DNA of 64,000 nucleotides from an uncultured Acidobacteriota bacterium (GTDB taxonomy: Bacteria; Acidobacteriota; UBA6911). This document shows positions 11,503-53,755 of this stretch, in pieces. The notes under the pieces are model-generated. The model was not told where the DNA came from. It worked only from the letters and a program-made list of their open reading frames with translations, and did not search any database. The position numbers and the translations under genes were made by a program. The stretch lies in NCBI GenBank assembly GCA_964481255.1, contig CAYZTZ010000002.1, forward strand, positions 39,131-103,130, in the 5' to 3' direction. The first letter of the stretch is position 1; each line of letters begins with the position of its first letter.

Positions 11503-11525
11503 GCGCGGCTTGCTTGAGGTTCGGC

Positions 11526-22791: not shown

Positions 22792-22809
22792 AATATTTTT
22801 ATGGATCTC

Positions 22810-23002
22810 TGAAAAGCGAACCGAGGTGCCCCGATCGGGGTTAAAAGGGAAGTGGGTGAAAATCCCACACGGTCCCGCCACTGTAATCGGAAAGCCCGGC
22901 GCCTGCGGCCCTTGATATCCGGAGGGCCCGCCACTCGTTTGAAATCCAGGACGGGGAAGGTGAGACGCCCGGCGACGACCCGTAAGTCAGGAAACCTGCC
23001 TC
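22810..23002 (+). promoter_or_regulatory. Cobalamin (B12) riboswitch
   Basis: Conserved core GGTGCC...TTAAAAGGGAAGTGGGTGAAAATCCCACACGGTCCCGCCACTGTAA, a GGGAAGG segment, and the B12 box AGTCAGGAAACCTGCC at 22985-23000. It sits in the leader of a btuF/C/D plus TonB-receptor operon. A 6-bp hairpin at 23020-23038 lies next to the start codon. Confidence 0.85.
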
Positions 23003-23044
23003 TTCGCCCGTTTCAGCCAACTCTTCGCGAGAAAGAGTCCTGAA

Positions 23045-24049
23045 ATGCAGTCTCAAATCCGCAGCACCCGCAAATCGCAAGCTCCCCGTGAAAGGCCGTC
23101 CGCCTCAAGCGCCGCGAGGCGTTTCCGCCTTATGATGTCTGCAATCCTGCTCTTGTCCTGCGCATCGGAGACAGGATGTCGAGACCCGCGCGGCGACGAT
23201 CGGACGGTTTCGCGGCTGAGCCCCGGCGAGGCGGGGCGGGCAATCTACACGGACGGCATCGGCAGGAAAGTGCAGATCCCCAGGCATCCGCGGCGCATCA
23301 TATCCCTGGCTCCGGATGTGACGGAGACCCTGTATCTCCTCGGGGCCGGCGACCGGCTCGTCGGCAACACCACCCAGTGCAACTGGCCCGAGGCGGCGAA
23401 ATCCAAACCTAAAGTGGGCGACCTGCTCAATCCCAACTATGAAGTCATTCTGGCCGCCAACCCCGACCTTGTGATTTCGTCCACTGCGGGCAACGACCGC
23501 GCGGCGGTGATGAAGCTTGTGGATCTGGGAGTCCCGGTTTACGTGGTCGCGCCGCGCACCGTGCAGAGGATCTTCCAATCCGTGGAGGACATCGGGCGCA
23601 TCACGGATTGCGCCGACCGCGGTTTTCAATTGGTCGCCGAGATGAAAGAGCGGCTGGAAAAAATCCGCAGCCGCATTAACGGTCTCCCCAGGGTTCGCGC
23701 CTTTTTCATTACGTGGTTCGACCCGCTGCTGGCCCCGGGGAAGGACACATTTGAAAACGACGTGCTGAGCCTCGCGGGCGTGACCTCGATTACGGCCGAT
23801 ATCCCGCAGTTTTACCCGCGGTACAGCCTCGAACAACTGCTGGTCCAGGATCCGGACGCCATTCTCACCGTCCGGCAGGAGGGTAATCCCATTCCCGATT
23901 TCAGAAGGATCGCCGGATGGAAAGATCTGCGGGCCGTTCGCGAAGGGAGAGTCTATATCTTAACCGAATTCCTTCAGCACCCCTCGCCCTTGTTCGTCGA
24001 CGGGGTGGAGGAACTCGCGCGAAAGCTTTACCCGGAGCGTTTCCCATGA
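23045..24049 (+). CDS. btuF: Periplasmic substrate-binding protein of a cobalamin/siderophore-type ABC importer (BtuF-like)
   Basis: RIISLAPDVTETLYLLGAGDRLVG...NYEVILAANPDLVI is the typical Peripla_BP_2 signature. An alternative start at 23132 (MMSAILLLSCAS) would give a lipoprotein signal. Confidence 0.8.
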   Translation: MQSQIRSTRKSQAPRERPSASSAARRFRLMMSAILLLSCASETGCRDPRGDDRTVSRLSPGEAGRAIYTDGIGRKVQIPRHPRRIISLAPDVTETLYLLGAGDRLVGNTTQCNWPEAAKSKPKVGDLLNPNYEVILAANPDLVISSTAGNDRAAVMKLVDLGVPVYVVAPRTVQRIFQSVEDIGRITDCADRGFQLVAEMKERLEKIRSRINGLPRVRAFFITWFDPLLAPGKDTFENDVLSLAGVTSITADIPQFYPRYSLEQLLVQDPDAILTVRQEGNPIPDFRRIAGWKDLRAVREGRVYILTEFLQHPSPLFVDGVEELARKLYPERFP

Positions 24050-25098
24050 ACCGTCTTTCGGGGATGAAAATCATCGTTGTGAACCTTTCGCTGCTGGGCG
24101 TCTGGTTCGCAGCGGCCGTGCTTTCCCTGAATGTCGGAAGCGTGTCCATCCCGGTCCGCACAACGCTGCGGCTCGCGCTCCTTTCCCTGACGGGGAGCGG
24201 CCCCGGCGGCGACCCTCTTGAATCCGTGCTTTTTTCCGTCCGGCTCCCCCGCGTTCTGCTGGGTTCCCTGGTCGGGGCCGGGCTGGCCGTCGCCGGAGCA
24301 GCCTTCCAATCCCTGCTGCGAAATCCTCTGGCGGATCCCTATGTACTCGGCGTGTCCACGGGGGCATCCATGGGCACGATCCTCTACTCCATTTTCGCCG
24401 GATGGATGGGAGTCGCTTCCGCCGGCGCGGGCTTCGTCTACGGGCGCCCGGTTGCCGCTTTCCTGGGAGCCGTCCTGACGATTGCTGCCGTGTACGCTGT
24501 GGCGGCGGGGTCGCGCCGCGGAGGGGAAAGTTCGCAAAACCTGCTGCTCGCGGGCATCATCCTGGCGTCCTTCCTCTCCTCCATCAACGTCTTCCTCCTA
24601 ACCAGCACCCATCAGGCCGACCTGCGGGGAATATTTTACTGGCTTATCGGCGACCTGAGCCGGCCGGTGGACGCGTCGATCTACCCGGTGACCATCCTGG
24701 TTTTCGCGGGCTTTGCGATCCTCTACCTTTTTTCACACAGTCTGAACCTGATCGGAATGGGGGAAAACGATGCCATGATCCTCGGCGTCGAGGTGACAAG
24801 GGTCAAGGCCTGCGTCTATGTCGTTGCCTCGCTCGTGACGGGGGCGGTCGTGTCGGTGAGCGGACCCATCGCCTACATCGGGCTGATATGCCCGCACATG
24901 GGCCGTTTGATATTCGGCGGCGACAACCGCATCCTGTTTCCGGCCGTGTTCCTTTTCGGGGCCGTCTTCACTCTCCTGGCCGACACCCTGGCGCGGACTC
25001 TTCTCTCGCCGGCGGAGCTCCCCGTCGGCATCGTCACCGCGCTGTGCGGGGCCCCTCTATTCATTTACCTATTGCGCCGCAAAGGAGGACGCCCATGA
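24046..25098 (+). CDS. btuC: FecCD-family ABC permease (BtuC-like)
   Basis: ATGA overlap with btuF. About 9-10 TM helices. Contains RLPRVLLGSLVGAGLAVAGAAFQSLLRNPLADPYVLGVS. Confidence 0.85.
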   Translation: MNRLSGMKIIVVNLSLLGVWFAAAVLSLNVGSVSIPVRTTLRLALLSLTGSGPGGDPLESVLFSVRLPRVLLGSLVGAGLAVAGAAFQSLLRNPLADPYVLGVSTGASMGTILYSIFAGWMGVASAGAGFVYGRPVAAFLGAVLTIAAVYAVAAGSRRGGESSQNLLLAGIILASFLSSINVFLLTSTHQADLRGIFYWLIGDLSRPVDASIYPVTILVFAGFAILYLFSHSLNLIGMGENDAMILGVEVTRVKACVYVVASLVTGAVVSVSGPIAYIGLICPHMGRLIFGGDNRILFPAVFLFGAVFTLLADTLARTLLSPAELPVGIVTALCGAPLFIYLLRRKGGRP

Positions 25099-25904
25099 GC
25101 CGGCAAGACATCCTGCTGGAGGCCCGCCGGGTGAGTTTCGATTACCGCAGGCCGGTACTCCGCGACATCTCCTTCAGCCTTCAGGCGGGAATCATGACGG
25201 GGATCATCGGGCCTAACGGCTCCGGCAAGACAACGGTCCTGCGGCTTCTCAACGGCATGCTTTCCCCGCGCACCGGAGACGTGATTCTGGAGGGGAAGCG
25301 GTCTATCTCGCAGTTGAAGCGAAAGGAGATCGCGCGGCATATCGCGATGGTTCCCCAGAACGGGGGTGTTTACTATTATCAGACGGTCTTTCAGTTCGCC
25401 ATACAGGGCCGGGCGCCGCATCTTTCGCTCCTGGGATTTGAAAGCCCCGGCGATGAGGCCATCGCCCTGCAAGCCCTCGAAATGACCCAGCTGACCCGCT
25501 ACATAAACTCGCGCGTGTCGGAAATCTCCGGCGGCGAGAAGCAGCGCCTGCTGCTCGCGCGAGCCCTGGCTCAGCAAACGGAGATCCTGCTCCTCGACGA
25601 ATTCACCGCCAACCTCGACATAAACTATCAGGTCGAACTGATGCGCCTTGTCCGCCGGATTACGCGCGAAAGGAACCTCGCGACGCTTGTCGTCTCGCAC
25701 GAAATCAATCTCCTGGGAAGCTTCTGCGATCGGATTCTCCTCATGGGCGAGGGAACAATCCGCCACCAGGGCGCCGTTGCGGAGGTATTGACCCGAGAAA
25801 ACCTGAAATCGATCTTCGGGTTGGACTTCTCGATCCGGGCGCTGCCCGGCGATAAAGTCGAAATTCTGCCCGTCATCAACCATCAACAAGGAGTTGTCAT
25901 ATGA
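25095..25904 (+). CDS. btuD: ABC ATP-binding protein (BtuD/FecE-like)
   Basis: ATGA overlap with the permease gene. Walker A GPNGSGKTT, signature ISGGEKQR, Walker B ILLLDEFTANLD. Confidence 0.85.
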   Translation: MSRQDILLEARRVSFDYRRPVLRDISFSLQAGIMTGIIGPNGSGKTTVLRLLNGMLSPRTGDVILEGKRSISQLKRKEIARHIAMVPQNGGVYYYQTVFQFAIQGRAPHLSLLGFESPGDEAIALQALEMTQLTRYINSRVSEISGGEKQRLLLARALAQQTEILLLDEFTANLDINYQVELMRLVRRITRERNLATLVVSHEINLLGSFCDRILLMGEGTIRHQGAVAEVLTRENLKSIFGLDFSIRALPGDKVEILPVINHQQGVVI

Positions 25905-28159
25905 GATTTAGCAGTCTGTTGAGAAGCCTCTTTGTCGGCGCAGCCCTTGGCGCCGCTCCAGCGTGGGTTCCAATCCTTCCCGGGTCTTCTCCCGCGGATG
26001 CGTCGCCCGCGGAGACCCACAGGGTTTGGGGGATGGTCGTCGATCCCAGTGGAGCGCCGCTCCCGCGCGCCCGGATCGAGGTCCGCGATGCCCGGGGCGG
26101 GATCGTCGCCACAGCCCTTACCAACAGCCGGGGAGAATACGCACTGCAGTTGCCGCCGGGAAAATACAATCTGTCTGCGGCAATGGCGGGATTCGTCCCC
26201 ATCGCCGACCGCATCGTGGAAGTGCCTCTCGACGCGTCCCCCATCCGCCTGACGCTCGAAATCCCCTCGCCCCGGGAACTGGTCGTGGTCACGGCGACGC
26301 GGACGGAAACGCCGATGTCGCAAATAGGCAACAGCACAACGGTGCTTTCAGGCGAGGAGCTGGCTCTTCGAGGCGCATCCTCTGTGGCGGACGCCCTGCG
26401 GGCATTGGCGGGCGTTACGCTCGTGCAGAGCGGCGGCAGCGGCAGCATGACATCGATTTTCATGCGCGGGGGCGAATCGGATTACACCAAAATCCTTGTC
26501 GACGGGATACCGATGAACGAGCCGGGGGGCAGTTACAACCTGGCCTACCTGTCCACTTCCGGCATCGACCGCATCGAAGTGGTGCGGGGGCCGCAGAGTG
26601 CGCTCTTCGGGTCGGACGCCATCAGCGGGGTCATTCAAGTCTTCACCAAACGCGGCCGAAGCGAGGGATTGTCGCCCAGACCTTCCGTAATGATCGAGGG
26701 CGGCACCTACGCGACTCTTCGTTACGGAGGCGGGCTGGAGGGGAGCAACGACCGGATGGACTACGCGGTTTCGTTCTTCCGCACCGACACCGACAACGAT
26801 GTCGCCAACGGCTCTTTCAATGAAACAACCTTCGCCGGGAACCTGGGGCTTCAGCTTTCCCGAAAAGCCGAGCTGAGAGCTGTTTTCCGGAGCGAAGCGG
26901 GCCGCTCCGGCGTCCCCGGCCCCTGGGCTTTTGAGCGTCCGGATCCCGATGCCTACTACCGCCGCAGAGACGTGTCCGGTTCGCTCACGCTGACCCATTT
27001 TCAGACGCCCGCCTGGACGCACAGAGTTTCGTACACGGTGAACGACTCGTACCAGCTTTCGGCCAACCCTCTGGATTCGGGGAGTTACACTCCGCAATAC
27101 CAGGGCCGCGTCGCGCCCTTCCCGTTTTCGGACTGGGTTTATGAAAGCCTCAACCAGACGCGCCGCCAGAAAGCGAACTATCAAAGCGACCTGGTCATGC
27201 CTTCGGGGCATCTGTTGACAGTGGGCGCGGACTACGAGCACGAGTCCGGCGTCGTCGGCGACCCGGCGCTGAACCCCGCTTCCGTGACGCGGGACAACTA
27301 CGGAGTGTACCTGCAGGATCAATGGTCGCTGAAAAACCGGTTTTTCGCAGCGGCCGGGGTCCGGCTGGACCATAACGAAAGCTTTGGGTTTTACGCCTCT
27401 CCCCGCGTTTCTCTCGCTCTGCTGGTGCGTCAGCCCGGCGCCGCTTCAGCCTGGGGAACGACCAAAATCAAGGCGAATTTCGGGCTGGGGATCAAGGAGC
27501 CGACCCTTCTTGAGTCCTACAGCACCTCCATATACTACCAAGGCAATCCGGACCTTCGCCCGGAAAAGACCGTCGGCTTCGACGCGGGCATCGAACAGCA
27601 GTTCCATTCCGGACGCGGCACACTGGAGCTGACTTATTTCCAGAACCAGTTCCGAGATCAGATCGGCTTCTCCATCACCGATTACTCGACGTTCGCGGGG
27701 TCCTTTTTCAACATCGGCAAATCGCGCGCCCGCGGGCTGGAGGTCTCGTTGCGCCGCGAGATGGGGTGGAACCTGGAAATGGGCGGCTCTTACACATTCC
27801 TGGATTCGGAAGTGCTGGAAGCCTCGATCACTTCCGATCCCGCGTTCGCCAAGGGACAGGAGCTTTTCCGCAGGCCGCGCCACTCCGGCAGTCTCGACCT
27901 GCGGTGGAGACCCGGACGCCTGACTCTGGGCGCCAACGCCCTGCTGGTCGGCTCGCGGGTCGATTCCGACTTCTCCGGGCTGAACATCACGCGCAATGAG
28001 GGATATTCCCTGCTCAACCTTATGGTGAATTTCAGGCTGATTGGCGGCACGTCCTTGTTCGCCGCCGTCAACAACGTCACCGACGAGTGGTACATGGAGG
28101 CTCTGGGCTATCCGGCGCTCGGCAGACATTTCCGGGCCGGTCTGCTCGCCGGATTCTAA
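25901..28159 (+). CDS. TonB-dependent receptor with an N-terminal carboxypeptidase-regulatory-like domain (BtuB-like role inferred)
   Basis: ATGA overlap with the ATPase gene. Signal peptide present. CarbopepD_reg-like segment VWGMVVDPSGAPLPRARIEVRD...NSRGEYALQLPPGKYNLSA. Plug domain ADALRALAGVTLVQSGG...FMRGGESDYTKILVDGIPMN. The protein ends in an aromatic residue (LLAGF). Confidence 0.9.
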   Translation: MRFSSLLRSLFVGAALGAAPAWVPILPGSSPADASPAETHRVWGMVVDPSGAPLPRARIEVRDARGGIVATALTNSRGEYALQLPPGKYNLSAAMAGFVPIADRIVEVPLDASPIRLTLEIPSPRELVVVTATRTETPMSQIGNSTTVLSGEELALRGASSVADALRALAGVTLVQSGGSGSMTSIFMRGGESDYTKILVDGIPMNEPGGSYNLAYLSTSGIDRIEVVRGPQSALFGSDAISGVIQVFTKRGRSEGLSPRPSVMIEGGTYATLRYGGGLEGSNDRMDYAVSFFRTDTDNDVANGSFNETTFAGNLGLQLSRKAELRAVFRSEAGRSGVPGPWAFERPDPDAYYRRRDVSGSLTLTHFQTPAWTHRVSYTVNDSYQLSANPLDSGSYTPQYQGRVAPFPFSDWVYESLNQTRRQKANYQSDLVMPSGHLLTVGADYEHESGVVGDPALNPASVTRDNYGVYLQDQWSLKNRFFAAAGVRLDHNESFGFYASPRVSLALLVRQPGAASAWGTTKIKANFGLGIKEPTLLESYSTSIYYQGNPDLRPEKTVGFDAGIEQQFHSGRGTLELTYFQNQFRDQIGFSITDYSTFAGSFFNIGKSRARGLEVSLRREMGWNLEMGGSYTFLDSEVLEASITSDPAFAKGQELFRRPRHSGSLDLRWRPGRLTLGANALLVGSRVDSDFSGLNITRNEGYSLLNLMVNFRLIGGTSLFAAVNNVTDEWYMEALGYPALGRHFRAGLLAGF

Positions 28160-28288
28160 CGACGGCGGTCCGCCCCTTGATGAAAAAAGCCGGCCGCTGA
28201 TCCGGAGTATTTCACGGGGGTATTCGCTCCAGGGATGCGCTGCGGCATGGCCTTCAAGGCCTATTTCTGATAGAAATAGATTCTGAAT

Positions 28289-31200
28289 TTGGAGGCCGAT
28301 GTGGATCCTTCGGGCGAGAGGTTTTGGCCGGAGTCCGCAGACCCGTACGACGAGACCGCCGCGGAACATCTCCAGCGCTACCACTCCGTTTTGGAGCTTG
28401 TCCGGGGCAAGGCCGTGATCGACGCCGGCAGCGGCGAAGGCTACGGGACACACCTGCTCGCAGGAACCTCCGCCTGTATCTTCGGCGTCGACGCCTCTGC
28501 GGAGGCGGTTCGCCACGCTTCCCTGAGGTATTTGCAGCCCAACCTGCGCTTCATTGCCGGCCTCATCGAAGCCCTCCCGTTTCGCGACGCGGCGTTCGAC
28601 GTGGTGGTTGCTTTCGAAGTGATCGAGCATGTCGTCGAGGGGCTGCAAACGGCCTTTCTGCGCGAAGCCCGGCGTGTGCTGCGCGCGGACGGCGTCCTGG
28701 TCATCTCAACCCCCAACAAGGCGGTTTACACGGACGCCGCGAACCAGCTCAATCCGTTTCACAAGCGGGAGTTCCACATCGGGGAGTTCGAGGAGTTCCT
28801 GAAGGACGTTTTTCCCCGCGTCGCTCTTTTCGGCCAGGGATGGCACCTGTCGTCCGTTATCGAGAAAGCCCCTGTCTCCAAACTGGCAAGCGTCCGTCTC
28901 GCCGACTCGAAGGAATTCTCTCCCAAGTACCTGGTCGCGGTCTGCGGCGCGACCGAGTCGGTCGACGCGGCCGATATCTCCTCGGTTCTGATCGACCGGC
29001 GAGGAAGGTTCGAAACCCTCTCCGGCCGTATCCTGAAACTGCAGGAGGAAGTCTCGGAAAAGAACTCCTGGGCCGCAGCCCTTCAGTCGGAACGCGACAG
29101 CCTCGAGCGCCGCGTCGTCGAACTGCAGGAGGAGGTCCGCCAGAGGAATTCCTGGGCCCTGGGCCTGGAACGCGAACTGGACGGAGTGAGGCAACGGGTC
29201 GTGGAACTGCAGAACGAGGTCGAGGACCGGAACGCCTGGGCGCTCTCTATCAACGCCGAACTGGAAAGTACCCGCGCGGAGCTCGAACGCACGCGGTCTG
29301 AACTGGACTCCATCCGCCAAAGCGATTTCTACAAACTGGCGACCCGTTATTGGCGCCTGCGCGACAGCCTGCTCCCGTACGGCAGCCGCAGGCGGAGGCT
29401 CATGCACGGCCTCTTTGCATTGCTGAAGCCGGCAAAAGTCAAGCCCCAAGAGGCTCCGACGAAGGCGGACGCCCTGAAACCGCGGCCTCCTGCCGCCAAG
29501 GAGTACCCGAGGATCGAGTTCCCGGAGTGCGCCGAGCCGCGCGTCTCGATCATCATACCCGCGTTCAATCAGTGGGATTTCACCTACAGGTGTCTCCAGA
29601 GCGTCCGCCGCACGACGGACGGACTGGCCTGCGAGGTCATCCTGGCCGACGACGGGTCGACGGACGAAACCGCGCGAGCCGATGAATTCCTCGGGGGCGT
29701 CCGCTGGCTGCGAGACGGCGTCAACCGCGGTTTTCTCCGCAACTGCAACCATGCCGCCGAGGCCGCGCGAGGGGAGTATCTCTATTTTCTGAACAACGAC
29801 GCCGAGCTGAAGCCCGGAGCGGTTCAGTCCCTCGCCGCCCTGCTCGATTCGGACGAGACAATCGGGATCGCGGGCTCGAAACTCGTGTATCCCGACGGCC
29901 GCCTCCAGGAGGCCGGCGGGATTTTATGGAAGGATGCCAGCGGCTGGAATTACGGCCGCGGGCAGGACCCTATGCTCCCTTCGTTCAACTATGTGAAGGA
30001 CGTCGACTACGTTTCCGGGGCAAGCCTGATGATCCGCAGGAAACTGTGGGAGGAAATCGGGGGATTCGATGACCGCTACGCGCCCGCCTATTGCGAGGAC
30101 TCCGATCTCGCGCTGGAGGCCCGCAGGCGAGGGTGGCGCATTGTGTATCAGCCCCGGTCGGTCGTAGTCCACCACGAGGGGGTGTCCCACGGGACGGATA
30201 TTTCCGACGGCGTTAAGGCACAGCAGATGCGGAATATGGAAATGCTCCGGGCCAAGTGGGCTTCCGAACTCGCCGCGCACTTCCCCAACGGGGAGAACGT
30301 CTTTCACGCGAGAGACCGCTCGGCGGCGAAAAGGACCATTCTGATCATCGATCACTATGTCCCGCATTTCGACCGAGACGCCGGCAGCCGGACGATGCAA
30401 TCGTTCATCGAGACATTCCTGGCCATGGGTCTGAACGTCAAATTCCTCGGAGATAATTTTTTCCCCCACCAGCCCTACACGGAGATGCTCGAACAGGCCG
30501 GAGTCGAAGTCCTGGTGGGCCCCTGGATCGCCGGCCGCTGGCGCGAGTGGATCCGCGAAAACGGATGCCGCCTGGACTACGCGCTCCTCAGCCGCCCTCA
30601 TATCGCCCCCAGGTACGTGGAGCCTCTGCGATCGCACGCGCGCGCCAGGCTGCTCTATTACGTCCACGATCTGCATTTTCTCCGCGAACGGGAATCGGCC
30701 CGTCTTCGCAACGACGCGCTCATGAAGGAGCGCGCCGAAAGGCTCAGGGCGGAGGAGACGCGTTTGATGAACCGCATGGATGCGATTCTTTCCTGCAGTG
30801 ACGCGGAGACGGAGATCTTGCGGGATCTTTGCCCGGGCGTGAAGGTTTTTTATGTCCCCCCGTACGCTGTCAGCGTGGATCGCGCGCGGGAGTTCAACGC
30901 CCCGGGGCGCAAGGATATCTTGTTTGTCGGCGGGTTTTCTCACCCGCCCAACACGGACGGCATCCTCTGGTTTGTGCGCGAGGTCTGGCCGTCCATTCGA
31001 GCGCGGCTTCCCGGGGTCGTATTCAACGTCGCCGGCGCCGATCCTCCCCCCGAGATCCGGGCGCTCGCCTCGGAATCCGTGCGTCTGCTGGGCTTCGTGA
31101 GCGACGACCGGCTGAAAAGGCTTTACGACAGCTCCCGGCTGGTCGTCATACCCCTGCGTTACGGCGCCGGCGTCAAGGGGAAAACGGTCGAGGCCATGGC

Positions 31201-31432
31201 CCACGGCGTGCCTTTTGTTACGACGCGCTGGGGCGTTGAAGGGATGCCGGGGATCCGCCAGATCCTCGATCCCGCTCAAGTCCCGGGGTCCCTGGCCGAT
31301 GGAGTCGTTGCTTTATACGAAGACGCCGCCCGCCTCGAGGAGATATCCCGGCGCGGGCGCGATTATGCAGCCGTGCGTTTCAATCGTGAGAACATTGCGT
31401 CCGCCTTTCAAAGCGTGTTTCAGGATCTTTGA
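28289..31432 (+). CDS. Multidomain glycan-assembly protein: class I SAM methyltransferase, coiled coil, GT2 and GT4
   Basis: Methyltransferase motif I VIDAGSGEGYG. Heptad-rich repeat region. GT2 segments VSIIIPAFNQ...ADDGSTDET...NRGFLRNCN...CEDSDLA. GT4-like C-terminus GAGVKGKTVEAMAHGVPFVTT. The likely true start is the GTG at 28301, which has GGAGG 5 nt upstream. Confidence 0.8.
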   Translation: MEADVDPSGERFWPESADPYDETAAEHLQRYHSVLELVRGKAVIDAGSGEGYGTHLLAGTSACIFGVDASAEAVRHASLRYLQPNLRFIAGLIEALPFRDAAFDVVVAFEVIEHVVEGLQTAFLREARRVLRADGVLVISTPNKAVYTDAANQLNPFHKREFHIGEFEEFLKDVFPRVALFGQGWHLSSVIEKAPVSKLASVRLADSKEFSPKYLVAVCGATESVDAADISSVLIDRRGRFETLSGRILKLQEEVSEKNSWAAALQSERDSLERRVVELQEEVRQRNSWALGLERELDGVRQRVVELQNEVEDRNAWALSINAELESTRAELERTRSELDSIRQSDFYKLATRYWRLRDSLLPYGSRRRRLMHGLFALLKPAKVKPQEAPTKADALKPRPPAAKEYPRIEFPECAEPRVSIIIPAFNQWDFTYRCLQSVRRTTDGLACEVILADDGSTDETARADEFLGGVRWLRDGVNRGFLRNCNHAAEAARGEYLYFLNNDAELKPGAVQSLAALLDSDETIGIAGSKLVYPDGRLQEAGGILWKDASGWNYGRGQDPMLPSFNYVKDVDYVSGASLMIRRKLWEEIGGFDDRYAPAYCEDSDLALEARRRGWRIVYQPRSVVVHHEGVSHGTDISDGVKAQQMRNMEMLRAKWASELAAHFPNGENVFHARDRSAAKRTILIIDHYVPHFDRDAGSRTMQSFIETFLAMGLNVKFLGDNFFPHQPYTEMLEQAGVEVLVGPWIAGRWREWIRENGCRLDYALLSRPHIAPRYVEPLRSHARARLLYYVHDLHFLRERESARLRNDALMKERAERLRAEETRLMNRMDAILSCSDAETEILRDLCPGVKVFYVPPYAVSVDRAREFNAPGRKDILFVGGFSHPPNTDGILWFVREVWPSIRARLPGVVFNVAGADPPPEIRALASESVRLLGFVSDDRLKRLYDSSRLVVIPLRYGAGVKGKTVEAMAHGVPFVTTRWGVEGMPGIRQILDPAQVPGSLADGVVALYEDAARLEEISRRGRDYAAVRFNRENIASAFQSVFQDL
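29039..29290 (+). repeat. In-frame tandem repeat, 3 x 84 bp (28 aa), encoding the coiled-coil segment
   Basis: Units start at 29039, 29123 and 29207, each with CTGCAG (LQ). The shared pattern is LQxEVxxRNxWAxxLxxELxxxRxxxxE. Confidence 0.85.
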
Positions 31433-31460: not shown

Positions 31461-32504
31461 GTGTCCATTCGAGCAAGGGCGCCGTTGCGGCTGGGATTGG
31501 CCGGAGGGGGGACCGATGTGTCGCCTTACTGCGACCTGTTCGGCGGAGCCGTGTTGAACGCGACGATCGACCGCTACGCGCACTGCACCATCGAGCCGCG
31601 CGACGACGGGCGGGTGACGATCGAGGCGCTCGACCTCGGCTTCCGCGAGGCGCTGCCGGCGGAACCAACGATCCCCGCCACCGGCCCGCTTCAGCTGCAG
31701 AAGAGCGTCTACAACCGGATCGCTCAGGATTATAACGGCGGCAAGCCGTTGTCCTTGGCCCTGACCACGTGGTCCGACGCCCCGCCGGGCTCGGGTCTCG
31801 GAGCTTCTTCAACCCTGGCGGTGGCCATGGTGGCCGCCTTCGCAGAATGGCTTCATCTGCCCATGGGCGAGTACGACATCGCCCGCTGCGCCTTTGTAAT
31901 CGAGCGCGTCGACCTGGGGCTGGCCGGCGGCAAACAGGACCAGTACGCCGCGGCTTTCGGCGGCGTAAACCTTATCGAGTTCTACGCCGGCGGACGGGTG
32001 ATCGTCAACCCGCTCCGCGTCAAGGATTGGATTCTCAGCGAACTCGAAGAATCGCTGGTCCTCTACTTCACCGGAGTCTCCCGAGACAGCGCCCGGATCA
32101 TCGACGAGCAGATCCGGAACGCCGAGACCCGTTCGGGCCCCTCGATAGAGGCCATGCACGCCATGAAGGCCGACGTGGCCCGCATGAAGGAGGCCATCCT
32201 CCTCGGCGACATCCGCCGCTTCGCGGAGATACTCGGGAACTCCTGGCAGGCGAAGAAAAAAATGGCCCGGGGCATTTCCAATGAGACTATCGAAAAAATC
32301 CATGACGGCGCGCTCCGGGCCGGGGCCATTGCCGGCAAGGTTACCGGCGCAGGCGGCGGAGGCTACATGATGTTCGTCGTGCCGCCGACGCGGAGGCATG
32401 CCCTGATGGATGCTCTGCGCCAAAACGGCGGCCAAGTCATGGATTTCCATTTCACCAGGGAAGGGGTCGCGTCGTGGAGAACGGGAAGCGGATCCCTGGA
32501 CTGA
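31461..32504 (+). CDS. GHMP-family sugar kinase, HddA-like (D-glycero-alpha-D-manno-heptose 7-phosphate kinase-type)
   Basis: GTG start with AAGGAGG 5 nt upstream. N-terminus RAPLRLGLAGGGTDVSPYCDLFGGAVLNATIDRY, GHMP motif PPGSGLGASS, and a C-terminal GAGGGG. Confidence 0.75.
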   Translation: MSIRARAPLRLGLAGGGTDVSPYCDLFGGAVLNATIDRYAHCTIEPRDDGRVTIEALDLGFREALPAEPTIPATGPLQLQKSVYNRIAQDYNGGKPLSLALTTWSDAPPGSGLGASSTLAVAMVAAFAEWLHLPMGEYDIARCAFVIERVDLGLAGGKQDQYAAAFGGVNLIEFYAGGRVIVNPLRVKDWILSELEESLVLYFTGVSRDSARIIDEQIRNAETRSGPSIEAMHAMKADVARMKEAILLGDIRRFAEILGNSWQAKKKMARGISNETIEKIHDGALRAGAIAGKVTGAGGGGYMMFVVPPTRRHALMDALRQNGGQVMDFHFTREGVASWRTGSGSLD

Positions 32505-33247
32505 TCGTGGCTGAGAGTGGACTTGAAGGCGTTTTCCTGGCGGGCGGTCTCGGGACTCGGATACGCGCCGTCGAGGCCGGGAAACCGAAGGTCATGATGG
32601 ACGTGGGCGGTCGCCCGTTCCTCGAAATCCTCCTGAAACACGCGATGGACCGGGGTCTGCGGCGGGCGATCCTGGCCACGGGATACAAGCACGAGTGCAT
32701 CGAATCCCATTTCGGGAATCGGTTCCAGGACGTCGAGATCCTCTACAGCCGGGAGTCCCGCCCGCTCGGGACCGGGGGGGCGGCGTGGAAAGCGCTGAAG
32801 ATCGCCCTGCAGGAAGACGTGTTCGTCTTCAACGGAGACAGCTTTTTCGACCTCGATCTCGCCGAGTTTTACGCCTTCCACAAATCCATCGGAGCGGACG
32901 CCAGCATGGCTCTCAAGCCGATGCTCGATTTCGACCGGTACGGCACGGTGCAGGCGGAAGGAGGCCGCATCACAGGCTTCCGCGAAAAACAGCGGGAAGC
33001 GCGCGGCCTGATCAACGGGGGGATATACCTGTTGAACCGATCCAGAATCGCAGCGCTTCCCATGCCGGAGACGTTCTCCATCGAGAGGGACTTCTTTGAA
33101 AGATACGCCGCTCGAATCCGTATGGGGGCGTTCGTCCGCGACGGCTACTTCATCGATATCGGGGTGCCCGAGGATTACGAAAGGGCGCGCAGGGAAATGA
33201 GGCCGACGGAATCGCATCCGGCGCCCGGCGGCGCCTCCACCAATTAA
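32474..33247 (+). CDS. Sugar-1-phosphate nucleotidyltransferase, HddC-like
   Basis: FLAGGLGTRIR...KPKVMMDVGGRPFLE is the nucleotidyltransferase signature. An alternative GTG start at 32507 lies 3 nt after the upstream stop. Confidence 0.75.
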   Translation: MENGKRIPGLIVAESGLEGVFLAGGLGTRIRAVEAGKPKVMMDVGGRPFLEILLKHAMDRGLRRAILATGYKHECIESHFGNRFQDVEILYSRESRPLGTGGAAWKALKIALQEDVFVFNGDSFFDLDLAEFYAFHKSIGADASMALKPMLDFDRYGTVQAEGGRITGFREKQREARGLINGGIYLLNRSRIAALPMPETFSIERDFFERYAARIRMGAFVRDGYFIDIGVPEDYERARREMRPTESHPAPGGASTN

Positions 33248-33297: not shown

Positions 33298-36200
33298 CTA
33301 AGGGCTCAGCTTAATTTGATAAACATCGAGGGTCCGCGCGAGCGAGCGATCCAGGTTGGCGAGAGCCTCTGCCAGGTTGGCTCGGGCGCGGACCTCGGCG
33401 CTGCGCGCGGCCACGTAGCCGCTTTGGCGCTCGAGGACCAGGAACATGATTGAAGTGCCCGACTGGAACTGGCGCTGCTCGCTCGCGTACTGTTCCAGCG
33501 CGGCCCCGGCGGCCATTTGGGCGGCCTCGTACATGACCCGCGCCGCGTTGACCTGCTCCAGGGCGTTGCGAACATCCGCCTCCACGTACATTTCCAGTTG
33601 TTTCCGGACAATCTCAAGCCTCCGGCTTTCAGCCAGCGCCGAAGCTACATTCGCTTCGGCTGTGCGGTTGTTGAGAGGAAGCGCGATCTGAACTCCGACT
33701 TTGAAGGCCGGGAAATTGCCGGCCCAGATATTGCTCAGAGACTGCCAGTTACCCCCTATCAGGGTTTCCGCCACCTGACCGGCGGGAAAACCCGGAAAGG
33801 GGGAGAATTCCTGGGGGGTCCCGGCCAGACCGGATGCGGTGACGGTCGCGATGAGATCGATCTGAGGCCTTTTCTGGTTCCGGTAATAGCGCACGTCAAG
33901 CCTGTTCATTTCCATCTGCAGGGAGTTGCCGGAAAGCTCGGGCCGGGAAGCCAGAGCCTGTTTCAATGCGTCCTCGAGGGCGGGCACGGTCCCGTCCAGC
34001 GACAGATGGGCGTCCGGGATCAGCGCTTCGCTCCACAGGGGATCCTCCCTGCCGCTCATTATCATCTGTTTCAGATTGTTTTCGGCCGTCGTGAGAATTT
34101 CCTGAGCCTGCGCCAGGGTCTGCCGGTAGGCGGCCACCTGCCTTTGCGCCGCCACGATTTCAATCGGCGCCAGAAGACCCTGCTCGACCTGCCTGCGGTT
34201 GCTCTCGTACTGCTCCGTGGCCAGCCGCAAGGCTTCGGTCTGCACCTCATGGTTCTGCCACGCGTAGACGAGTTCCCAGTAATACCGGACGGCCTGGGTG
34301 ACCCGCTCTATAACCCTCTGGCGCAGCTGCTCGGCGCTTAACTGCAGATTCTTGCGGGCCACCAGCAGCGAATGGCGCCCCGCGTCGATGCGCAGGTCCC
34401 GCCAGAGCGGCTGGGTGAAATTGAAGGACAGTGAGGAGGGATACTGGGGATTCAGGGTGGTAAACCTGCTGTCGTTCGTCTGTTTGGAATCGGAAAAGGT
34501 CAGGCTGTAGCCGGTCCCCAACCGCGGGGAAAGGCCGGTTATCTTGGGCGTGACGGTGAATTCTGTCGAGGTCAGTTTGCCGCTGGTGGACCCCATGATA
34601 ATTGTGGCGATGGGAGTGGCCGTGCGCGACCTGGATCCGTCCAGAGTGAAGACAGGGTCGAAATAGCCCTTCGCGCTCTCGATACCGTATCCGGCCTTTT
34701 CGATGGAGATGCGGGAAATGGCAAGCTCCGGATCGTTGGCCAGAACGCGCTCGATCGCCTCTCTGAGCGTGAGATTCGTTTTGCCCTTCACCCCGATTCT
34801 CGAAGGGAGTTCAAAAGCGCTCAGCGGCTGTAGCCGAACAGACGAAGGCATATCCGCCGTTCGCGATGCCGCGGGTGTCTGAGCGAAGGAAATGGGAACA
34901 AAAAGGAGCGGAATGGAGACAAGGGCCGCCGCTTTGGCCGCCTGTTTGGTCCTCCAGCGCATTACCCCTCGGGAGCGGATCCAGTGAGCCAGATCCTCCC
35001 ATAGAGAGTAGAACACCGGAACGGCCAGCAGCGTGAGCGCCAGACACAGCGTCTGTCCTCCGGCCACCATGAATCCGATGGAGTGGTTCGTGGCGGCCCC
35101 GGCGCCCCGCGACAACAGCAGAGGAATCATGCCGCAGACCAGGGCCATCGTCGTCATCAGGATGGGGCGAAGCCGGTCCCGATTCGCCTGAATGATGGCG
35201 TCGTAGCGGTTCATGCCCGCCGCCCTGAGTCCGTTCATGTGGTCGATCTGCAGGATCGCGTTCTTCTTCACGATGCCGAACAACAGCAGCAGCCCGAGAC
35301 CCGACATGATCGTAATCTGCTGGCCCGTGACCAGCATGGAAAAAATCCCGAAGGGCACGGCCAGCGGAAGCGAAATCAGGATCGTGATCGGGTGGATGAA
35401 GGATTCAAACTGAGCGGCCAGCGTGATGTACATGAAGATGAAGGCCAGCGCGAAGGCGACGGCGAAGTTGTAGCCGGCCTCGACCATCCTCCCGGTTATT
35501 CCGGTCGCACCGCCGTTGTATCCCGGATCCATATCCAGTTCATCGATGATACGCTCGAATTGACCCACCACCGCGGACTGCGATCCGCCTTCCATGAGGT
35601 TGCCCGTGATCTCGACGATCCGCTGCCGGTTGAGGCGCTCGATCGACGATGGTCCCGACCCCGACCGGACGCGCACGACTTCATTCAAGCCCACCGCGCC
35701 GATTCTGGTGGAAGCCACCGTCAGCTTCTCGAGGCCCTCCACCGAACCCCGGAACTGGTCCTCGGCCTGAACCACCACATCGTACTGATCATCCCCGGCA
35801 TTGAAGGTGCCGGCCGTTTGTCCCGCGACCAGAGTATTGATCGCCCGCTGCACGCTCTGCACGGATACGCCGAGGTCGGCAGCCCGTTCGCGGTCGATCT
35901 CCAGGCGCACTTCCGGCTTGCCGGCGCGCAGGGAGGTGTCAAGATCGCCCAAACCCGGGATGGTCCCGGCCTTCGCGACGAGTTTTTCCGAGTACTCCGC
36001 CAGCTTCCGGATATCGGGTCCCTGGAGATAATACTGGATATCGGACATCCCTCCCGGCCCCATGCCGGTGGCCGCGACCACGGAGAGAAAGATATTCGGG
36101 GGGTGGTCTTTCAGCATATCCCGGACCTTCGCCGCTATTTCATCCGAGGACAGGTCGCGCTCCCCGATATCGACCAGCTTGACATAAATGGAGGCTGCAT

Positions 36201-38019
36201 TGCCGGAACCGCTGGAATCCCCGCCCACGGTATTCAGAGTATGGGTGACGCCGTCGAGCGCGCGCACCCGCCGGGCTATATCCTCGGAAAACCTCGTCGT
36301 CTCGGCCAGCGAGCTCCCCTCCGGGAGGCGGATGCTGATATTGAACTGCGACTGGTCGTCCCTGACGAACATGTTCTTGCCGATCAGCATGAAGAGAGGA
36401 ACGATCGAGAGGATCACGACGACGCAACTCCACACGACGGTTTTCCTGTGCCCCATGGCCCATATCAGCGCCCTGGTGTAGGTCGTGTCGAGAATTCGGA
36501 AGAATCGGGCATCCTTGGATTTCCGCCCCGCGCCTTCCGCCGGCGGATGGACAAAACGCGAACACAACATAGGGGTCAGGGTAAAGGACACGAGCATCGA
36601 CACGACTACGGCGCCGGCGCAGGTGAATCCGAAGGCGCTCATGAAACGCCCCGTCATGCCGCCCATGAACCCGACCGGGACGAAAACCGCCAGGAGGGAG
36701 ATGGTCGTGGCCAGCACCGCAAGGCCGATCTCCTTGGTGCCTTTCTCGGCCGCTTCGAAAGGCCCCATCTTCTTCTCTTCCATGTGCCGGTAGATGTTCT
36801 CCAGCACGATGATGGCGTCATCGACCACGACGCCCACCATCAGGGTCAGAGCCAGCATCGTGATCTGGTTCATGGTGTATCCGAAAATCGCCATGACCGA
36901 AAAAGCGGACACGAGGGATACCGGGATGGCGATGGCGGCGATGACCGTCGTGCGCCAGTTGGCGAGGAAGAAAAACAAGACGACGGCCGCAAGCAGGCTC
37001 CCCTCGAACAGGTGGTTCCGGATATTGTCGATGGCGGCCTTGATGAAGATCGACTGGTCGCTGATGATCTGCACGCGGACGTCTTTGGGCAGAGTCTCCT
37101 GAACCTCCGCCAGGCGCGCCTTCACGGCGTCTGCGACCTCCACGGTGTTCGTGCCCGACTGCTTGTAAACGGCCAGCTGCACGGCCGGTTCGCCGTTGAG
37201 CCGCACCGTCGTCGTGGGCTCTTCGGCCGCGTCCTCGGCGCGCCCGATGTCGCGGACCTTGACCGTGTAACCGTTCCGGTTTGCGATGGCGACGTCGTTG
37301 AAGTCCGCGGGCTCCTGGATCTTGCCGGAGGTTCGGATGGTGTAATCCCTGTCCCCCGCCTTGATGCTGCCGCCCGGCATCTCCATATTCTGGGTCTGCA
37401 GCGCCGCGAAAACATCCGTCACCGTCAGGTTGTAGGCGCGCAGGCGTTCCGGGTTCACGATGACATGGATCTCGCGCTCGGCGCCGCCCAGAATCTGGAC
37501 CTGGCCGACCCCGTTGCAGTTTTCAAGCTTCTGCTTGATCAGCTTGTCCGCGATCATGGTCACGTCGCGGGTGGAGCGGGACGCGGACACGGCGATCTGC
37601 AGAATGGCCGTGGCGTCCGGGTCCATCTTCGAGACCACGGGGACCTCGGCGCTGGAAGGCAGCTCGTTGACGATCTGGTTGATCTTGTTCTGGACCTCCT
37701 GGGCGGCCACGTTGCCGTCCTTGGAAAGGTCGAATTCGATCCGGATAAGCGCCATCCCCTCCGCCGAAGTGGAGGTTATTTCGTCCAGGCCGCTGATGCT
37801 GTTGACGGCATCCTCGATTTTCCGGGTGATTTCGGTCTCGACCTCTTCGGGAGACGCGCCCGGATTGACGACGGTCACCGTCACGAACGGGGCGTCGATC
37901 TTGGGCATCCGGTCCACGCCGAGAGAGAAATAGGTGAAGATTCCCGAAACGATGAACGCCAGGATCAGCATTGTCGCGAAGACCGGGCGCCGGATACAAA
38001 GTTTTGCTAAGCCGTGCAT
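33298..38019 (-). CDS. Single ORF joining an RND (AcrB/HAE1-like) permease (38019-34963, 1019 aa) to a TolC-like outer-membrane factor (34962-33298, 554 aa)
   Basis: The N-terminal MHGLAKLCIRRPVFATMLILAFIV...VDRMPKIDAPFVTVTV and 12 TM segments are typical of RND pumps. From codon 1020 the sequence reads MRWRTKQAAKAAALVSIPLLFVPISFA|QT (a signal peptide), then LTLREAIERVLANDPELA and two OEP-type repeats. There is no stop codon between the two parts. Confidence 0.85.
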   Translation of the reverse strand: MHGLAKLCIRRPVFATMLILAFIVSGIFTYFSLGVDRMPKIDAPFVTVTVVNPGASPEEVETEITRKIEDAVNSISGLDEITSTSAEGMALIRIEFDLSKDGNVAAQEVQNKINQIVNELPSSAEVPVVSKMDPDATAILQIAVSASRSTRDVTMIADKLIKQKLENCNGVGQVQILGGAEREIHVIVNPERLRAYNLTVTDVFAALQTQNMEMPGGSIKAGDRDYTIRTSGKIQEPADFNDVAIANRNGYTVKVRDIGRAEDAAEEPTTTVRLNGEPAVQLAVYKQSGTNTVEVADAVKARLAEVQETLPKDVRVQIISDQSIFIKAAIDNIRNHLFEGSLLAAVVLFFFLANWRTTVIAAIAIPVSLVSAFSVMAIFGYTMNQITMLALTLMVGVVVDDAIIVLENIYRHMEEKKMGPFEAAEKGTKEIGLAVLATTISLLAVFVPVGFMGGMTGRFMSAFGFTCAGAVVVSMLVSFTLTPMLCSRFVHPPAEGAGRKSKDARFFRILDTTYTRALIWAMGHRKTVVWSCVVVILSIVPLFMLIGKNMFVRDDQSQFNISIRLPEGSSLAETTRFSEDIARRVRALDGVTHTLNTVGGDSSGSGNAASIYVKLVDIGERDLSSDEIAAKVRDMLKDHPPNIFLSVVAATGMGPGGMSDIQYYLQGPDIRKLAEYSEKLVAKAGTIPGLGDLDTSLRAGKPEVRLEIDRERAADLGVSVQSVQRAINTLVAGQTAGTFNAGDDQYDVVVQAEDQFRGSVEGLEKLTVASTRIGAVGLNEVVRVRSGSGPSSIERLNRQRIVEITGNLMEGGSQSAVVGQFERIIDELDMDPGYNGGATGITGRMVEAGYNFAVAFALAFIFMYITLAAQFESFIHPITILISLPLAVPFGIFSMLVTGQQITIMSGLGLLLLFGIVKKNAILQIDHMNGLRAAGMNRYDAIIQANRDRLRPILMTTMALVCGMIPLLLSRGAGAATNHSIGFMVAGGQTLCLALTLLAVPVFYSLWEDLAHWIRSRGVMRWRTKQAAKAAALVSIPLLFVPISFAQTPAASRTADMPSSVRLQPLSAFELPSRIGVKGKTNLTLREAIERVLANDPELAISRISIEKAGYGIESAKGYFDPVFTLDGSRSRTATPIATIIMGSTSGKLTSTEFTVTPKITGLSPRLGTGYSLTFSDSKQTNDSRFTTLNPQYPSSLSFNFTQPLWRDLRIDAGRHSLLVARKNLQLSAEQLRQRVIERVTQAVRYYWELVYAWQNHEVQTEALRLATEQYESNRRQVEQGLLAPIEIVAAQRQVAAYRQTLAQAQEILTTAENNLKQMIMSGREDPLWSEALIPDAHLSLDGTVPALEDALKQALASRPELSGNSLQMEMNRLDVRYYRNQKRPQIDLIATVTASGLAGTPQEFSPFPGFPAGQVAETLIGGNWQSLSNIWAGNFPAFKVGVQIALPLNNRTAEANVASALAESRRLEIVRKQLEMYVEADVRNALEQVNAARVMYEAAQMAAGAALEQYASEQRQFQSGTSIMFLVLERQSGYVAARSAEVRARANLAEALANLDRSLARTLDVYQIKLSP

Positions 38020-40261: not shown

Positions 40262-40837
40262 TTGGTATTGACGTACGCCAACCAGCTGACGATTCTGCGG
40301 ATGGCCTTTGTGCCTTGTTTCGTTCTCCTCCTTGTCTACGGATACCCCAAATCCGCCACCTTCCTGTTTCTGATCGCGGCGGTCACGGACGGTCTCGACG
40401 GCCTGCTGGCCCGCAAATTGCAGCAGAAAACGGTCCTGGGGTCCTTCCTCGACCCTATGGCGGACAAAATTCTATTGACGGCGGCCTTCATCACGCTGAC
40501 GGTTCCCTCTCTGCCTCTGGCCCTGCACATCCCGACGTGGCTCACCATTTTGACGATAAGCCGCGATCTCATCATCGCCCTGTCGGTGCTCATCATCCAT
40601 CTACAGACCCGGCACTCCCATTTTCCCCCGAGTCTGCTGGGAAAATGCACCACGGCAATCCAGCTCCTGACCGTGGGTCTCTGCCTGGCGGCCAACTTCG
40701 AGATCCGCCTGGCCGTCACGCTGTTCCCTTATGTCGTTTACGGCACCCTGGCTCTGACTCTGGCCTCCGGAACGCACTACGCCTACAGGTCGTTCAAGAT
40801 CATCGCGTCCTACCAGGTAGCGGGAAATGTCCAATAA
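40262..40837 (+). CDS. pgsA: CDP-diacylglycerol--glycerol-3-phosphate 3-phosphatidyltransferase (CDP-alcohol phosphatidyltransferase family)
   Basis: Contains the DG(x2)AR(x8)G(x3)D(x3)D motif (AAVTDGLDGLLARKLQQKTVLGSFLDPMADK). AGGAG at 40251-40255 precedes the TTG at 40262. The longer track ORF from 40091 would extend into the tetR promoter region. Confidence 0.8.
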   Translation: MVLTYANQLTILRMAFVPCFVLLLVYGYPKSATFLFLIAAVTDGLDGLLARKLQQKTVLGSFLDPMADKILLTAAFITLTVPSLPLALHIPTWLTILTISRDLIIALSVLIIHLQTRHSHFPPSLLGKCTTAIQLLTVGLCLAANFEIRLAVTLFPYVVYGTLALTLASGTHYAYRSFKIIASYQVAGNVQ

Positions 40838-52393: not shown

Positions 52394-52527
52394 TTCCTCT
52401 TGGCCGGGATCCAAAACTATAGTATCGTGGGACATTTCACGCGAGCCTCAGGGTTTTGGCGGGGCCGTGCGAATTGCCCAAGAGGGGTTTGCCTGATCTT
52501 GAAATTGCAAAGGAGAACAGAGTGCCC

Positions 52528-53136: not shown

Positions 53137-53254
53137 AATTCCGCCGCTCTGCAACGGCAAAGCCCGGGCCTTCCCGGAAGCCCGGAGCGGAGGACGGGAA
53201 ACACGGGGAAACGGGATCGGGAGCCCTTTCCCCGGCAGACACGGGGATAGCCAC

Positions 53255-53722: not shown

Positions 53723-53755
53723 AGGAGACGACCGCCGCCGCTTTTCAGGATTGCC

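Follow-up and report, generated by a model that had tools for sequence, protein, structure and literature searches.

The subject of this analysis is one large gene in a 64,000-nucleotide (nt) stretch of DNA from an uncultured Acidobacteriota bacterium (contig CAYZTZ010000002.1; this whole stretch is here called the window). Positions 28289 to 31432 of the plus strand form an open reading frame (ORF) that opens with TTG, encodes 1047 amino acids (aa), and shows gene-like codon-position GC content (GC3, the GC fraction at third codon positions, of 0.78). An earlier note on this DNA had read it as a methyltransferase (MT), a coiled coil, and two glycosyltransferases (GTs) on one 1047-aa chain, and had proposed that the protein terminates, measures, and polymerizes a surface glycan. 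The ORF and its coordinates are exactly as given there, but the protein is probably slightly shorter. An in-frame GTG at 28301 is preceded, at a spacing of 5 nt, by a GGAGG Shine-Dalgarno box (28291 to 28295). In the database, the gene is called with a product of 1043 aa, and the N termini of homologues fall at the corresponding residue. Because of this spacing, the gene call, and the homologue starts, we place the gene at 28301 to 31432 (plus strand), with a probable product of 1043 aa and with TTG 28289 four codons too early. Residue numbers below are those of the 1047-aa ORF.

Pfam searches and an AlphaFold2 model agree on the order of domains along the chain, which is a class I S-adenosylmethionine (SAM)-dependent MT, a heptad helix, a GT2 domain of the GT-A fold, and a GT4-like domain of the GT-B fold. 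The model, made for a single chain from a 42-sequence alignment, has a mean predicted local distance difference test score (pLDDT) of 85.7, and its MT, GT-A, and GT-B modules all score above 90. There is no transmembrane segment in the protein, no kinase, and no Pfam domain beyond the MT, the coil, and the two GT modules. Only a short linker joins the MT to the coil in the model. To describe conservation, we surveyed an alignment of 42 homologues with 31 to 86% identity.

The MT module covers aa 22 to 234 (28352 to 28990, plus strand). Its matches to the Pfam families Methyltransf_11, Methyltransf_25, Methyltransf_31, and Methyltransf_23 fall at aa 35 to 156, with E values from 1e-18 (Methyltransf_11) to 4e-12. 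The glycine-rich SAM motif I, VIDAGSGEGYG, lies at aa 43 to 53 (nt 28415 to 28447). Within it, D45, G49, E50, G51, and G53 are invariant in the 42 homologues, as are E110, E113, and H114 elsewhere in the module, and the acidic residue D68, which follows strand 2, is kept in at least 90% of them. A Foldseek search of the PDB matched the fold to 3l8d (target-normalized TM score, 0.70), and PDB sequence matches of the module include the sugar O-methyltransferase 6uv6. With a Rossmann-like fold, a glycine-rich motif I, and the acidic residue, the module is by its sequence and predicted structure a class I MT. We infer that it is the enzyme that caps the glycan chain by O-methylation, a predicted activity that we propose by analogy.

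The coiled-coil spacer follows. The model has one continuous helix at aa 240 to 342 (29006 to 29314, plus strand), which at 103 residues would extend about 15 nm if straight. Across aa 236 to 345, two registers spaced 3/4 consist of L, I, V, or M at 62 to 67%, four other registers contain none (0%), and the a/d pattern is unbroken, a bias well outside chance expectation. Pfam matches to aa 240 to 388 come only from coiled-coil families (Fez1, ATG14). Within the spacer, aa 248 to 331 (nt 29030 to 29281, plus strand) consist of three 28-residue (four-heptad) repeats that start at aa 248, 276, and 304 and follow the pattern VVELQEEVxxRNxWAxxLxxELxxxRxR. TRF found no tandem repeat of period 84 behind them at the DNA level. 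Recent repeat slippage in this genome was considered and rejected, because the three copies have diverged and no DNA tandem repeat remains.

Beyond the coil lies a conserved basic and aromatic segment, SDFYKLATRYWRLRDSLLPYGSRRRRLMHGLFALLK (aa 345 to 380; 29321 to 29428, plus strand), which is kept across phyla with the consensus SxxWKxxxxYxRxRDxxLPxGSRRRR. AlphaFold2 models it as two short helices, H346-361 and H367-377, at low pLDDT. By comparison with the membrane-binding region of the O-antigen terminator WbdD, this segment may serve as a membrane-proximal anchor or as a site of interaction. A linker modeled as disordered then runs up to aa 416.

The GT2 module (aa 417 to 662; 29537 to 30274, plus strand) matches Glycos_transf_2 (PF00535) at aa 420 to 585 (E value, 6e-26) and Glyco_tranf_2_3 (PF13641) at aa 417 to 631. 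Invariant or nearly invariant residues among the 42 homologues are D454 and D455; N502, N503, and D504; E541 to G544; and D604 and D606. In a Foldseek comparison with the PDB, K4CP chondroitin polymerase and ppGalNAc-T were matches for the GT-A part. The GT-A fold, a DxD-type motif, and a catalytic acidic residue thus all point to a GT2 enzyme. The GT4-like module (aa 683 to 1045; 30335 to 31423, plus strand) is matched by PF13692, PF00534, and PF13439; Glyco_trans_1_4 (PF13692) covers aa 875 to 1012 (E value, 1e-24), and a weak match to the Glyco_transf_4 N-lobe covers aa 743 to 854. D695 and D697 are conserved, and H885, P887, N888, D890, K963, and K965 are invariant. Among PDB structures, Foldseek matched the module to BshA, PglA, MshA, and PimA/B′, all retaining GT4 enzymes, with TM scores near 0.7. 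The two-Rossmann fold and the GT4 C-lobe signature indicate a GT4 enzyme of GT-B type, presumably with retaining stereochemistry. For both modules, a polymerizing role is predicted by analogy. The layout proposed in the earlier note is therefore borne out, from the MT with its VIDAGSGEGYG motif through the extended heptad segment to two GT domains on the same polypeptide, and the profile searches that it had called for (Methyltransf_11/23/25, Glycos_transf_2, and Glycos_transf_1) all returned matches. The two defects that it had named as fatal to a ruler, loss of SAM-binding residues and lack of an extended coil in the predicted structure, were not seen, since motif I is invariant and the coil is modeled as a single helix of about 15 nm.

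Homologues of this protein are widespread. Full-length homologues with 53 to 85% identity occur in Acidobacteriota metagenome bins, and homologues in Rufibacter and several Paenibacillus species are about 41% identical over the whole length. A scan of one genome per species yielded at least 574 relatives, with full-length copies in Firmicutes, Bacteroidota, Proteobacteria, Actinobacteria, and Acidobacteriota. Among these proteins, the spacer is the part that varies in length. Measured from the end of the MT to a conserved SDFWK motif, the linker of the target is the shortest seen, at 124 aa, and that of homologue P0003 reaches 488 aa, a range of about 18 to 70 nm if fully helical. Across orthologues, among them P0003, P0004, P0008, and P0009, the number of repeats goes from 1 to at least 13, and the repeat spacing is exactly 28 residues. 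In close orthologues whose catalytic parts are 86 to 93% identical, the linker differs by +14, −63, −14, −77, and +7 aa, all whole heptads. Such shifts would be expected if the spacer is held in coiled-coil register and varies in length rather than in sequence.

The N-terminal module varies as well. Some relatives align with the target only from the coil onward, and these carry different enzymes on the same coil-GT2-GT4 chassis: a sulfotransferase (L059:8285-10300 and L068:8348-10300), a pyruvyl transferase with FrhB/ferredoxin-like (4Fe-4S) domains (L026:5209-8427), or a different MT (L036:8219-10300). An extra GT2 occupies this position in L075, and the N-terminal domains of L034, L028, and L057 have no assignment. 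This swapping supports an end-capping role for the N-terminal module, and the replacements suggest sulfate or pyruvate chain caps in relatives. If so, sulfate- or pyruvate-capped glycans would be read by matching Wzt_C domains (the carbohydrate-binding domain of the ABC exporter discussed below). We tentatively propose, at somewhat less than even likelihood, that the ruler in this family is naturally tunable, with 28-residue repeats gained and lost so that lineages set very different O-chain lengths, and with a coil-GT2-GT4 chassis that accepts methyl, sulfate, and pyruvyl cap enzymes. What is modestly new here is the 28-residue quantum of the coil, with variation in heptad steps, together with the other N-terminal modules on the same chassis; in the literature cited here, we found neither a repeat-tuned ruler nor swapped sulfate or pyruvyl caps described.

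Two genes that follow the target point to a sugar donor. A gene for an HddA-like D-glycero-D-manno-heptose 7-phosphate kinase, here called hddA (31461 to 32504, plus strand; NF049969; E value, 7e-130; 433 bits), begins 28 nt after the target stop codon and probably belongs to the same operon. It overlaps hddC, which encodes an HddC-like D-glycero-D-manno-heptose 1-phosphate guanylyltransferase (32474 to 33247, plus strand; NF049965; E value, 2e-59; 201 bits). These neighbors indicate GDP-D-glycero-alpha-D-manno-heptose as a donor. No UDP-sugar dehydrogenase was found in the window by tblastn, and neither rml genes nor an initiating phosphoglycosyl transferase appeared in a Pfam survey of the window. 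When 27.9 to 33.6 kb was scanned, no sites resembling promoters turned up, and those resembling terminators did not exceed chance expectation; a single hairpin (28249 to 28261) lies between the TonB receptor gene upstream and the target gene.

The only wzm/wzt pair in the window, which encodes an ATP-binding cassette (ABC) exporter, lies upstream of the target gene on the same strand. Wzm, an ABC-2 permease (PF01061), is encoded at 11514 to 12368, and Wzt at 12368 to 13714; the latter combines an ATPase (PF00005) with a C-terminal carbohydrate-binding Wzt_C domain (PF14524; E value, 2e-31), the domain type that recognizes terminal caps. Against the PDB, Wzt is matched best by 8dku and 7k2t, both full-length Wzt chains, which we take to be the Aquifex Wzm-Wzt with its carbohydrate-binding domain. 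Next to wzt, the gene at 13741 to 16068 (plus strand) encodes a 775-aa GT2-GT4 fusion whose N terminus includes a hydrophobic segment. This protein, a paralogue of the GT part of the target, is 29 to 30% identical to its two GT modules and is likely a second polymerase or an adaptor component. Upstream of wzm, all on the plus strand, are genes for a TviC-like epimerase (6438 to 7397), a GT4 (7510 to 8619), a ligase-like Wzy_C protein (PF04932; ORF 8276 to 9856), and a DUF1972/Cps2T-like GT4 (10183 to 11316). As listed, the Wzy_C ORF shares about 340 nt (8276 to 8619) with the GT4 gene before it; because the overlap is 8 nt and the protein about 400 aa in relatives, its real start is probably near 8612. 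Four further GT2 genes (16422 to 17105, minus strand; 17436 to 18479, 18517 to 19446, and 19305 to 20495, plus strand) carry the glycan locus to about 20.5 kb.

Between the glycan locus and the target gene lie genes for TsaD and an IF-2B/MtnA-family (PF01008) protein, both on the minus strand after 20.5 kb, and then a cobalamin riboswitch (22807 to 23017, plus strand; RF00174; 101.7 bits). Directly downstream of the riboswitch is an operon for a periplasmic binding protein, a FecCD permease, an ABC ATPase, and a TonB-dependent receptor (23045 to 28159), in keeping with the vitamin B12 uptake operon proposed previously. The separation of about 14 kb from wzt in that proposal is right, but with glycan genes running to about 20.5 kb, the nonglycan stretch is only about 7.8 kb.

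We examined 80 related species loci for exporter genes within 10 kb. A Wzt-type ATPase is present in 61 of them and a Wzt_C-like domain in 44 (by tblastn, which has limited sensitivity here). Where the homologue is full length and contains the MT, wzm-wzt lies within 10 kb in 12 of 17 loci, usually directly upstream. In four more distant Acidobacteriota relatives (L001, L002, L088, and L089), the epimerase-GT4-Wzy_C-GT4-Wzm-Wzt(Wzt_C)(-GT2-GT4) block found around wzm/wzt in the window divergently adjoins homologue-HddA-HddC, with a gap as small as 300 bp in L088; the L089 contig ends before wzm. An equivalent of the 775-aa protein stands beside wzt in L002 and L088. HddA and HddC are conserved neighbors in these four loci as well as in L003 and L087. 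In L087, the closest relative (85% identity), the junction is that of the window, with a TonB receptor, the homologue, HddA, and HddC.

Other loci show the same association. The order in Paenibacillus alba (L003) is wzm-wzt-homologue-hddA-acyltransferase-gmhA-hddC-gmhB, that in L005 is wzm-wzt-homologue, and in Rufibacter, wzm and an ABC ATPase lie 9 kb downstream of the homologue. The homologue is contiguous with the wzm/wzt cluster in L001, L002, L003, L005, and L088. From the block that adjoins the homologue in four relatives, we conclude that the split in the present genome is secondary, one ancestral cluster having been rearranged in this lineage. A functional link between the target and the Wzm/Wzt exporter at 11.5 to 13.7 kb is thus credible. 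The partnership, the cap-reading type of Wzt, and the division over two loci had each been anticipated in the earlier note, and the co-occurrence in related genomes on which it had staked the ruler idea is what we find.

Two further features of these loci were observed. Toxin-antitoxin-like genes (PIN, AbiEii, and HEPN/nucleotidyltransferase) occur between or beside the halves of the glycan cluster at L089:4555-8227 and L088:15695-20268, which suggests that this junction is especially prone to insertions and rearrangements. In Paenibacillus alba, a sulfotransferase and an adenosine 5′-phosphosulfate (APS) kinase are encoded just upstream of wzm-wzt-homologue (L003:5794-7708), and the cluster also contains an 840-aa Wzy_C protein that raises the question of a WsaB-like O-oligosaccharyltransferase.

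We consider it likely that the target, on one chain, polymerizes, measures, and terminates a surface glycan of the ABC-transporter-dependent kind; this glycan would most likely be the O antigen of lipopolysaccharide (LPS). For the target, termination by methylation, a ruler role, oligomerization, membrane association, and the identity of the sugars are proposed by analogy with WbdD, WbbB, Klebsiella pneumoniae O7 ORF6, and WsaE. The GT modules would extend an undecaprenyl-linked chain, probably in concert with the paralogous 775-aa GT2-GT4 protein whose gene adjoins wzt, and at least one sugar would come from GDP-D-glycero-alpha-D-manno-heptose made by the cotranscribed HddA and HddC. The basic and aromatic segment after the coil may help to hold the GT modules in place, while a parallel coiled coil of 103 residues would keep the N-terminal MT about 15 nm away, where, we propose, it could reach only chains that have grown long enough. 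O-methylation of the nonreducing end would then stop elongation and create a cap, which the Wzt_C domain of the Wzm/Wzt exporter would read before export. The Wzy_C protein would ligate the exported chain.

Several points weigh against this interpretation. To our knowledge, a ruler role has never been demonstrated for an MT-GT-GT protein of this exact type. The coil helix has only moderate confidence (pLDDT, 70 to 79), and with a monomer alone modeled, its oligomeric state and parallel arrangement are taken from analogy. The MT is a generic class I enzyme without specific similarity to WbdD and could methylate internal residues. One alternative accordingly dispenses with the ruler: the target would be a polymerase or decorating enzyme whose MT methylates internal residues and whose coil only oligomerizes or scaffolds the GTs, with length set by exporter kinetics or enzyme stoichiometry. 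Extra stand-alone MTs in the L004 and L005 clusters, where methyl decoration is thus common, would fit, and methylation by WsaE in vitro is independent of chain length (PMC2943079). We nevertheless rate it as quite improbable, because the order of cap enzyme, coil, and GTs is kept across phyla while coil length shifts by whole heptads, the N-terminal module is replaced by other end-modifying enzymes, and linkage to a Wzt with a cap-reading Wzt_C is tight; in characterized systems, moreover, the coiled-coil protein marks the terminator (PMC11231755). The division of labor between the two GT2-GT4 proteins is a separate matter, since the one beside wzt could be the main polymerase. The target would then be mainly a terminator complex, its GTs adding a terminal or adaptor disaccharide that the MT caps. 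The paralogous gene directly follows wzt, a position kept in relatives, and polymerase modules are variably spread among proteins in characterized systems (PMC11231755). However, in Paenibacillus alba and L005, gene calls within 10 kb of wzm-wzt-homologue include no other GT2-GT4 fusion, so the homologue is the obvious polymerase there, and the GT modules of WsaE and K. pneumoniae O7 ORF6 do polymerize (PMC2943079, PMC11231755). This arrangement thus seems unlikely to us.

The single-chain terminator, ruler, and polymerase is also questioned by its surroundings. HddA and HddC are best hits but score below the NCBIfam equivalog cutoffs (433 bits versus 600 and 201 versus 300, respectively), tblastn found neither gmhA nor gmhB in the window, and hddA occurs in only 21 of the 80 related loci, so heptose is not a family-wide donor. 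The product itself may be something other than LPS O antigen: a capsule-like polymer or a glycan attached to protein, as in S-layers or in general O-glycosylation, with the Wzy_C protein as an O-oligosaccharyltransferase instead of a WaaL ligase. PF04932 spans both WaaL ligases and O-oligosaccharyltransferases of the PglL/WsaB type (PMC2943079), and Firmicute homologues, such as those in Paenibacillus, must serve non-LPS glycans. Here, though, a cluster for the outer membrane and lipid A (BamA, Skp/OmpH, LpxA, and LpxI; 49808 to 55429, plus strand) indicates that the organism is diderm and makes LPS, and the glycan locus has the makeup of a classic wzm/wzt O-antigen cluster. We regard such a product as improbable for this genome, and it would alter the acceptor while leaving the way the target works unchanged. 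Finally, the target gene lies 14.6 kb from wzt, with TsaD, the PF01008 gene, and the cobalamin-riboswitch uptake operon, all unrelated, between them, which raises the prospect that after rearrangement it was uncoupled from the Wzm/Wzt locus and serves another pathway or is a relic. That is very unlikely, given that the ORF is intact with all catalytic motifs conserved, its hddA-hddC partners are kept, and the window has only one wzm/wzt pair. The split junction is also retained in L087, whose catalytic modules are 86 to 87% identical to those of the target, a pattern that indicates purifying selection.

Elsewhere in the window, a 1573-aa ORF at 33298 to 38019 (minus strand) contains a complete AcrB-type resistance-nodulation-division (RND) pump (PF00873; E value, 6e-282; aa 5 to 1006) followed by an outer membrane efflux protein (OEP; PF02321) region at about aa 1348 to 1560. 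Pump and OEP are normally separate proteins, and genes for HlyD and TetR proteins adjoin the ORF, which may reflect either a genuine fusion or a join produced by a frameshift or by assembly. A gene for a protein with PDZ, radical-SAM-like, and DUF512 regions (40827 to 42128, plus strand) adjoins one for a CDP-alcohol phosphatidyltransferase. The ORF at 4673 to 5953 (plus strand) was rejected as a gene: it has no Pfam hit, and a QueG-like gene occupies the minus strand there.

If the proposed pathway holds, a large multidomain gene of an uncultured Acidobacteriota-type genome gains a confident functional annotation, and two separated loci become parts of a single O-antigen-like pathway whose product probably contains heptose and carries a methyl cap. 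Across the family, naturally graded ruler lengths and exchangeable cap modules would provide material for testing the coiled-coil ruler model outside the Enterobacteriaceae, and the length series could also be used to engineer glycan chain length. The mechanism is established in model systems, and the target adds breadth to it, not a new principle.

The layout is likewise not new, as WsaE, WbbB, and K. pneumoniae O7 ORF6 are characterized precedents. The earlier note had described WbdD-like chemistry in a WbbB-like layout; the MT-coil-GT-GT order stands, but a specific similarity of the MT to WbdD was not found. WbdD is absent from the 40 phmmer hits, the best 60 hits of a 42-sequence profile, and the best 50 Foldseek hits, all against the PDB, and no WbbB sequence or fold match is among the best PDB hits of the target. 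These searches returned only generic class I MTs, GT-A enzymes, and GT4 enzymes, so membership in the WbdD or WbbB family was rejected, and we keep the relation to both as an analogy. For the heptose donor, a comparison is offered by Escherichia coli O52, whose O antigen is ABC-transporter dependent. This O antigen contains heptose, and its cluster carries hddA, hddC, gmhA, and gmhB for a GDP-heptose donor (PMC7685785). Its sugar is 6-deoxy-D-manno-heptose, which requires dmhA/dmhB, genes not seen in the window, and the account cited describes no fused terminator-polymerase (PMC7685785).

A methyl terminator in a single-chain layout has been described experimentally for both WsaE and O7 ORF6 (PMC2943079, PMC11231755). 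WsaE, from the S-layer glycan system of Geobacillus stearothermophilus NRS 2004/3a, combines an MT with two rhamnosyltransferase domains (PMC2943079, PMC3898925). Compared by architecture and gene order from its description, it resembles the target as a single polypeptide with an N-terminal MT (which makes a 2-O-methyl cap in WsaE) and then two chain-extending GT domains, and its gene directly follows wzm-wzt, as in Paenibacillus, L005, and many Firmicute homologues. Unlike the target, WsaE uses dTDP-L-rhamnose and forms two alpha-rhamnosyl linkages, whereas the window lacks rml genes and has hddA/hddC, and no coiled-coil ruler is reported for it (PMC2943079, PMC3898925).

WbdD (E. coli O9a/O8 and K. 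pneumoniae O3/O5) shares with the arrangement proposed for the target an MT terminator at the membrane-distal end of a coil; its coil length sets the O-antigen modal length, and its cap is read by the Wzt C-terminal domain (PMC5082667, PMC11231755). Its trimeric coiled coil of about 200 Å keeps the terminator away from the polymerase, and insertions or deletions in the coil alter modal chain length (PMC5082667). The coil thus spans about 20 nm in WbdD versus a predicted 15 nm or so in the target. In WbdD, the coil leads to a membrane-binding helix and a WbdA recruitment site with no fused GTs, whereas the target coil leads to two GT modules; O9a WbdD also has a kinase, which Pfam does not find in the target.

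The other two precedents are WbbB and O7 ORF6. WbbB (K. pneumoniae O12/Raoultella terrigena) has a terminator, a coil, and two polymerizing GTs on a single chain (PMC11231755), as in the target, but its terminator is a beta-Kdo glycosyltransferase, whereas the N-terminal module of the target is a SAM-dependent MT. K. pneumoniae O7 ORF6, which has been shown to both polymerize and terminate, begins with a methyltransferase(-kinase) region that a coiled coil joins to a pair of GT2 modules (PMC11231755). It is similarly ABC-transporter dependent, with an N-terminal MT-containing terminator, a central coil, and two C-terminal polymerizing GTs; it differs in its added kinase and carbohydrate-binding module (CBM)-like domain, its methyl-phosphate cap, its length of 1414 aa, and its pair of rhamnose-transferring GT2 modules where the target has GT2 plus GT4. 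The authors of that study regard the coiled-coil protein as the marker of a widespread terminator strategy (PMC11231755). The target shares with proteins of the WbbB/O7 ORF6 type a putative chain-modifying module at the N terminus, an extended coil, C-terminal GT modules that are predicted to polymerize, and an association with wzm/wzt(Wzt_C).

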